Shown here: positions 35,288-36,040 of the stretch, in pieces
Layout: every line of letters starts with the position of its first letter
How positions within the stretch are numbered: the first letter of the stretch is position 1
DNA from: Escherichia coli
Lineage (GTDB): Bacteria > Pseudomonadota > Gammaproteobacteria > Enterobacterales > Enterobacteriaceae
Assembly (NCBI RefSeq): GCF_003334385.1
Contig: NZ_QOWN01000019.1
Strand: one strand, 5' to 3'
DNA: 64,000 bases
Notes under the pieces: model-generated
Databases searched by the model: none
Told to the model about the DNA's origin: nothing
What the model saw: the letters and a program-made list of their open reading frames with translations, nothing else
Translations under genes and position numbers: made by a program

Positions 35288-36040
35288 ATGGCCGTACTGG
35301 GATTGCAGGGGGTGCGGGGAGGCGTGGGGACAACAACCATCACCGCCGCATTAGCCTAGTCATTACAAATGTTGGGAGAAAATGTCCTGGTGGTCGATGC
35401 CTGCCCGGACAACTTGTTGCGCCTGTCATTTAATGTTGATTTTACCCACCGTCAGGGCTGGGCCAGAGCGATGCTGGATGGCCAGGACTGGCGTGACGCT
35501 GGGTTGCGCTACACCTCGCAGCTCGATTTGCTGCCTTTTGGTCAGTTATCCATTGAAGAACAAGAAAATCCACAGCACTGGCAAACCCGGCTGAGCGATA
35601 TTTGCTCCGGCTTACAGCAACTAAAAGCCAGCGGGCGTTACCAGTGGATTTTAATCGACTTACCGCGTGATGCCTCGCAGATAACCCACCAGCTGCTGAG
35701 TTTGTGCGATCACTCGCTGGCAATCGTCAATGTGGATGCCAACTGCCATATCCGACTGCATCAGCAAGCGCTGCCGGATGGCGCACATATTTTGATTAAT
35801 GACTTCCGTATTGGCAGTCAGGTTCAGGACGATATTTACCAGCTTTGGTTGCAAAGCCAGCGCCGATTACTGCCGATGCTCATTCATCGTGATGAAGCGA
35901 TGGCTGAATGCCTGGCGGCTAAGCAACCAGTAGGTGAATATCGCAGTGATGCGCTGGCGGCTGAAGAGATACTGACGCTGGCGAACTGGTGCCTGTTGAA
36001 CTACTCCGGGCTGAAAACGCCAGTCGGGAGTGCATCATGA
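35288..36040 (+). pseudogene. bcsQ: bcsQ (MinD/ParA-like ATPase of cellulose synthase) interrupted by an in-frame TAG at 35357-35359
   Basis: ATG 35288 gives MAVLGLQGVRGGVGTTTITAALA-stop, then the same frame continues from ATG 35369 (MLGENVLVVDACPD...) to 36040; the deviant Walker A GGVGTT lies upstream of the stop. Confidence 0.85.

Follow-up and report, generated by a model that had tools for sequence, protein, structure and literature searches.

A premature amber codon at a former Dcm site in bcsQ of Escherichia coli, probably a deamination-derived loss-of-function allele distinct from that of K-12

We have found that bcsQ of the cellulose operon bcsRQABZC is a pseudogene of the BcsQ family, and not a working member, in the window analysed here (the whole stretch of 64,000 nucleotides of Escherichia coli DNA). 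The best explanation, to which we give a probability of about 0.78 as a whole, is that its premature stop, W24*, is a loss-of-function allele which originated at a Dcm site by deamination, in a phylogroup-A-like E. coli lineage that is not K-12. Nonsense inactivation of bcsQ and the parallel loss of bcs function are already well documented, both in K-12 and in ST95 and other clones, and W24* is another such allele. The one element beyond the ordinary is the apparent Dcm-site origin, which is supported by population data. We found no description of W24* in the literature searched, and the public annotations already flag the pseudogene.

The bcsQ frame starts with the ATG at 35288-35290, from which the window translation reads MAVLGLQGVRGGVGTTTITAALA, and it ends with the TGA at 36038-36040, overlapping the bcsA ATG at 36037-36039 as ATGA. 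The premature TAG at 35357-35359 is codon 24, and the ATG at 35369-35371 is codon 28, in frame with the first ATG. The initial annotation had given the start at 35288, the stop at 35357-35359, the resumption at 35369 and the end at 36040 with its bcsA overlap, all of them exactly to the base. It had also placed the TAG just past the Walker A motif and had expected a product restarting at 35369 to be without the P-loop. Both points agree with our results: the loop occupies 35309-35338 and the TAG begins at 35357, and the open reading frame from 35369 covers profile positions 28-250 only. As for the surroundings, bcsQ lies between bcsR and bcsA in bcsR-Q-A-B-Z-C on the plus strand, with bcsE-F-G divergent on the minus strand, and every gene of the locus but bcsQ is open (Table 1). 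Actually, among the 35 genes that are annotated in close relatives across positions 12,000-60,000 of the window, bcsQ alone has an internal stop, and the other 34 are open.

Table 1 Features in and around the interrupted bcsQ gene, in window positions.
Feature	Position	Strand	Evidence or remark
bcsQ pseudogene, 250 codons, broken at codon 24	35288-36040	+	Translation; profile and PDB matches of the repaired frame
Deviant Walker A / P-loop GVRGGVGTTT, codons 8-17	35309-35338	+	Upstream of the TAG, window translation
Former Dcm site, wild-type CCTGG, CCTAG in the window	35355-35359	+	Bottom-strand CCAGG
Premature amber TAG (W24*, 71G>A)	35357-35359	+	A in 7/5,426 genomes
Candidate re-initiation ATG, codon 28, 9 nt past the TAG, without Shine-Dalgarno upstream	35369-35371	+	
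Shine-Dalgarno-like GGGAGAA, then in-frame GTG, codon 35 (35390-92)	35374-35392	+	Putative internal start; product would be without P-loop
In-frame Dcm amber hot spot CCAGG, codon Q66, intact in the window	35482-35486	+	
bcsR, 62 aa, intact, first gene of bcsRQABZC	35088-35276	+	Identical to WP_001063318.1 in relatives
ATGA, bcsQ stop/bcsA start (translational coupling signature)	36037-36040	+	GGGAG Shine-Dalgarno at 36024-28
bcsA, open, 870 aa, in-frame 6-bp deletion	36037-38649	+	
bcsB, open	38660-40999	+	Private A391V (39831)
bcsZ, open	41006-42112	+	
bcsC, open	42094-45567	+	
bcsB-bcsZ-bcsC block	38660-45567	+	
bcsG, open	31380-33059	-	
bcsF, open	33056-33247	-	
bcsE, open	33244-34815	-	Private G365D (33722)
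Divergent bcsEFG operon as a whole	31380-34815	-	

We have restored the G at 35358 and compared the repaired product with the family. It scores 542.9 bits against NCBIfam NF007460 / TIGR03371 (cutoff 399), aligning over 1-250 of 250, and it is near-identical over 1-250 to the BcsQ of PDB 6YBU/6YAR; that is, the repaired gene is a full-length member. As it stands, the TAG at codon 24 leaves no unbroken frame that encodes the Walker A motif and the remaining fold as a single chain. In addition, allele counts were made with 55-base queries centred on the variable base, in which every 28-base seed word includes that base. At the position of the TAG, the sense codon TGG is present in 5,243 of 5,426 complete E. 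coli genomes (G at 35358), and A takes the place of this G in 7. In all of these seven carriers (7/7), bcsQ is annotated by NCBI as a pseudogene with an 'internal stop'.

BcsQ of PDB 6YAR and 6YBU (PMC7840130) is a SIMIBI (MinD/ParA-like) ATPase of E. coli-type cellulose secretion. The window gene cannot encode the full protein, which is cut off by the TAG after 23 residues. Studies on the intact protein have revealed that R10, G14, T16 and T17 matter for ATP binding or cellulose secretion, and that the triphosphate of the ATP sandwiched in the dimer is bound by T16/T17 of Walker A. R10E gives less secretion and G14S an inactive BcsQ, while deletion of bcsQ abolishes cellulose secretion and reduces the partner subunits (PMC7840130, PMC5727187). 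As secretion cannot proceed without BcsQ, we predict that the strain is cellulose-negative, whether the stop is polar or not. It should make no phosphoethanolamine-cellulose, and its biofilm matrix would be without cellulose.

The substitution that created the stop, G>A at 35358, corresponds on the bottom strand (CCAGG) to a C>T at the methylated inner cytosine, which is the signature of 5-methylcytosine deamination. Spontaneous deamination of this kind is the most likely origin of W24*. The mutated G would have been paired with the inner, Dcm-methylated C of CCWGG; here we assume that Dcm is active in the source strain, as dcm lies outside the window. The classical precedents are the CCAGG amber hot spots in lacI, attributed to 5-methylcytosine deamination (Coulondre et al. 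1978, in the summary given by PMC12606429). The Dcm hot spots of lacI and W24* are alike in that a G:C>A:T transition at the inner C of CCWGG yields TAG, with an excess of roughly ten-fold or more at such sites over the others. On the other hand, W24* belongs to natural populations, has the TGG (bottom-strand) orientation and depends on Dcm only presumably, whereas the lacI cases concern CAG in a laboratory reporter. If this base is a mutational hot spot, the presence of one rare allele in several unrelated haplotypes of bcs is explained. The mutation is supplied by the hot spot and persists only where the loss of cellulose is tolerated or favoured, as it may be in some niches.

The seven genomes with W24* (7/5,426) are Combat2C1, WAT, B-JRPT-4119, LR-33, EC65, NCTC9100 and GmM062. 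Across the bcsG-bcsC segment of 14.2 kb, 4 SNPs separate the window from LR-33 and NCTC9100, 70-76 SNPs from GmM062 and B-JRPT-4119, 103 SNPs from WAT, and about 340 SNPs (up to 343) from Combat2C1 and EC65. The window, LR-33 and NCTC9100 have one shared bcs haplotype, and the TAG of the window may have been inherited together with theirs by descent, rather than being new. In the more divergent carriers, the nearest background SNPs of their own lie close to the TAG, i.e., at 28 bp in WAT, at 44 bp on either side in EC65, at 44 and 76 bp in Combat2C1, and at 76 bp in B-JRPT-4119 and GmM062. Since these SNPs are only 28-76 bp away, it is unlikely that the TAG was imported by recombination and spread in this way among the divergent carriers. 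We infer at least four independent origins of W24*.

The same recurrence might also be produced by selection for cellulose loss, or by recombination, with no hot spot at all. We regard this as unlikely, though it has points in its favour: bcs loss-of-function of many types, including frameshifts and IS insertions, does recur and is linked to virulence (PMC10881479), and close relatives of the window bear other bcs lesions. However, in Combat2C1, EC65 and WAT the recombined tracts would have to be shorter than about 90-120 bp, and selection alone is not expected to prefer Dcm sites among equivalent early nonsense changes. Such a preference is what we observed. The other in-frame Dcm amber site of bcsQ, Q66 (CCAGG), is amber in 21 genomes, which fall into four identity bands, while the non-Dcm change TGG>TAG was found in 1 genome at W58, in 0 at W68 and in 1 at W98. 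Overall, amber codons at the Dcm sites are commoner than at the three non-Dcm controls (7 and 21 vs 1, 0 and 1, counted as genomes, so that clonal spread is mixed with independent events), and they recur independently, on at least four backgrounds. In two conserved neighbouring genes taken as controls, the Dcm-type ambers dppB Q97* and dctA Q127* were both absent from the 5,426 genomes.

The published alleles of ST95 bear on the same question. The table of Nhu et al. 2024 covers 613 genomes and contains 13 distinct bcs nonsense alleles (PMC10881479), whose positions we have located in the bcs sequence of SF-173, an ST95 strain. Eight of the 13 affect the inner C of a Dcm site (BcsQ Q66* and Q178*, BcsA Q253* and Q581*, BcsB Q42*, BcsE Q215*, BcsG W247*, BcsC Q513*) and five do not (BcsA W55*, W674* and Y213*, BcsB Q57*, BcsG W517*), where the assignment of the Trp alleles is conditional as the table does not specify TAG or TGA for them. 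Among all possible nonsense changes in the six genes, Dcm sites account for 20/1,324 (1.5%), which gives a binomial P of about 3e-12 for the observed 8/13; among transitions only, their share is 20/470 and P is about 5e-9. That eight of 13 alleles lie on 1.5% of the possible changes is a further argument against selection or recombination acting without a hot spot. In addition, three alleles, Q66*, Q178* and Q42*, are present in two separate clades, and all three (3/3) are at Dcm sites.

BcsQ Q178* is the most frequent nonsense allele of ST95, with 24 genomes, and W24* is not among the ST95 alleles (PMC10881479). Like W24*, the alleles of ST95 and other ExPEC clones described there are bcsQ nonsense changes in natural isolates, with cellulose lost in parallel across lineages. 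In ST10, a truncated bcsQ alone is recorded in 37% of genomes, and further ST10 rows combine it with other bcs truncations, with the alleles unspecified (PMC10881479, Supplementary Data 3). In PMC10881479 selection is given as the cause of the recurrence, and there is no mention of Dcm, methylation or deamination. By title and abstract, we found no literature on E. coli bcs mutations that treats bcsQ together with Dcm. As a side observation, synonymous differences of SF-173 (B2/ST95) create the Dcm amber sites BcsQ Q178 (AGC-CAG), BcsB Q42 and BcsE Q215, and these three sites are absent from the window haplotype.

Based on the above analyses, it is fairly probable that much of the parallel loss of E. 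coli cellulose genes through nonsense changes is supplied by a few in-frame Dcm sites, with W24* among them. If this is true, which alleles recur, and part of the convergence signal, would reflect a methylation-driven mutational bias together with selection, and strains without Dcm, or with stronger very-short-patch repair, should lose cellulose more slowly. The matter is of some weight, for bcs loss-of-function alleles serve as evidence for adaptive convergence towards virulence. Since most recurrent nonsense alleles are on Dcm sites, a model of mutation supply is needed before recurrence can be taken to mean selection.

An error of sequencing or assembly is very unlikely as the source of the stop. 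What might suggest it is that W24* and the 6-bp deletion in bcsA occur together in the window, a combination of which the 5,426 complete E. coli genomes gave no example. However, the change is a substitution rather than a homopolymer indel, the same base is present in seven independent assemblies, and the 48-kb region is otherwise clean, with 34 of its 35 genes open.

In the bcsA deletion, one of the tandem CGTCCG copies is lost between 36250 and 36251, when compared with K-12 and LR-33, and NASRPRPLDP is shortened to NASRPLDP (RPRP>RP) at codons about 73-76. Counted with a 45-base junction query, it is present in 17 of the 5,426 genomes, which are of varied sources, and W24* is in none of them (0/17). 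All four combinations of W24* and the deletion exist, and therefore at least one of the two characters must be recurrent or have been moved by recombination. The best 24-kb matches to the window, 160-11H1 and MB06232, both have TGG at codon 24 together with the bcsA deletion. Each bears a lesion of its own: 160-11H1 has an ISKpn26 between bcsE and bcsR, in the promoter region (22845-23986 there, corresponding to window 34853), and MB06232 has a 1-bp deletion that frameshifts bcsA, equivalent to window 37008. Beyond the two characters themselves, we found no informative sites by which the window could be assigned to either the TAG carriers or the deletion carriers. A hypermutator or mutagenised strain is unsupported, as the window has about 12-15 SNPs against its nearest relatives over 48 kb. 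The CGTCCG unit of bcsA is an apparent slippage hot spot.

Could bcsQ still be functional in spite of the stop, through a restart at ATG 35369 or GTG 35390, or through amber readthrough or suppression? The ATG is only 9 nt past the stop, and the in-frame GTG has the Shine-Dalgarno-like GGGAGAA ahead of it. Restarts past early amber codons are known for lacI of E. coli, and a restart here might at least soften the polarity on bcsA. We nevertheless consider a working BcsQ extremely unlikely. A restart drops residues 1-27 or 1-34, i.e., strand beta1 and the whole Walker A loop, and single substitutions in Walker A (G14S, R10E) already impair or abolish BcsQ function. Since the BcsQ dimer relies on strand beta1 and the Walker A loop to hold its sandwiched ATP, the products of a restart at M28 or V35 would be inactive. 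Among the BcsQ chains of the PDB and NF007460, no full-length family member begins at residue 28; all begin at residue 1, and therefore 35369 is excluded as the normal translation start. Moreover, three of the seven W24* carriers have gathered further bcs lesions, namely bcsB frameshifts in B-JRPT-4119 and NCTC9100, a split bcsC in NCTC9100 as well, and an IS1 in bcsE of GmM062. These lesions are as expected for a locus that is already dead.

The TAG lies 680 nt upstream of the ATGA overlap with bcsA, i.e., it is an upstream stop in a coupled gene. From this arrangement, polarity on bcsA-bcsC is plausible, and it might act through the lost coupling at the ATGA overlap or through Rho. Scans inside bcsQ for promoters, terminators, rut-like sites and C/G (C-rich tract) gave nothing usable on polarity.

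The initial annotation had matched this stop to the nonsense allele of K-12 laboratory strains, and although that allele is also an early TAG in the same gene and the bcs haplotype of the window is very near K-12 (3 SNPs and one indel over 7 kb against a K-12 derivative), this reading has practically no chance and is ruled out by base-level sequence comparison, since the K-12 TAG is codon 6 (TTG>TAG, 17T>A; PMC5944007, PMC7397504), codon 6 of the window (35303-05) is the wild-type TTG, and codon 24 is TGG in the K-12 derivative AML002_ev02 (which in the alignment shows A at 35304 but G at 35358, against T and A in the window). The stop codon is accordingly no ground for treating the strain as a K-12 derivative.

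The two alleles, L6* of K-12 and W24*, do have in common the gene, an early amber codon, an otherwise open bcs locus and the expectation of a cellulose-negative strain; for K-12, repair of codon 6 to TTG gave the cellulose-positive AR3110 (Serra et al. 2013, as cited in PMC7397504, PMC5014196 and PMC5944007). They differ in the base change, which is a G>A transition at a Dcm site in W24* and a T>A transversion in L6*, and in their distribution. Separate queries, each centred on its own base, found L6* in 349 of the 5,426 complete genomes, the matches listed being mostly K-12 laboratory derivatives, whereas W24* is in 7 on several backgrounds. The stop of K-12 precedes the Walker A loop, while that of W24* follows it. 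As a result, a restart at GTG codon 9 in K-12 (242 aa) keeps most of Walker A, whereas all restarts after W24* lose the loop. NCBI gives bcsQ of AML002_ev02 (3225-3953) as an ordinary 242-aa CDS from GTG codon 9, WP_011310329.1. Annotated in this way, and not as a pseudogene, the K-12 lesion is invisible in the annotation, whereas W24* is flagged with 'internal stop'.

The initial annotation had further suggested that this one codon may be the only lesion of the system. W24* is indeed the sole frame-breaking one, but the bcsA 6-bp deletion, BcsE G365D and BcsB A391V exist besides, and W24* need not be the sole silencing lesion in the window. The bcsA deletion allele is annotated as intact in 160-11H1 (WP_072643177.1). 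G365D, A391V and one synonymous bcsC change are private to the window, as none of them was seen in the seven relatives that we compared. Of the four bcs substitutions private to the window, three alter the protein, which fits relaxed constraint, in a tiny sample.

Two minor observations concern the neighbourhood of the locus. At window 53729, the AsmA-family gene yhjG (52917-54971) has an in-frame 6-bp deletion compared with MB06232 and 160-11H1, and its frame is open. Between yhjV and bcsG, the window has one ldr toxin gene (ldrD, 31186-31293), while three or four tandem copies are present in WAT, B-JRPT-4119, EC65, GmM062 and SF-173.
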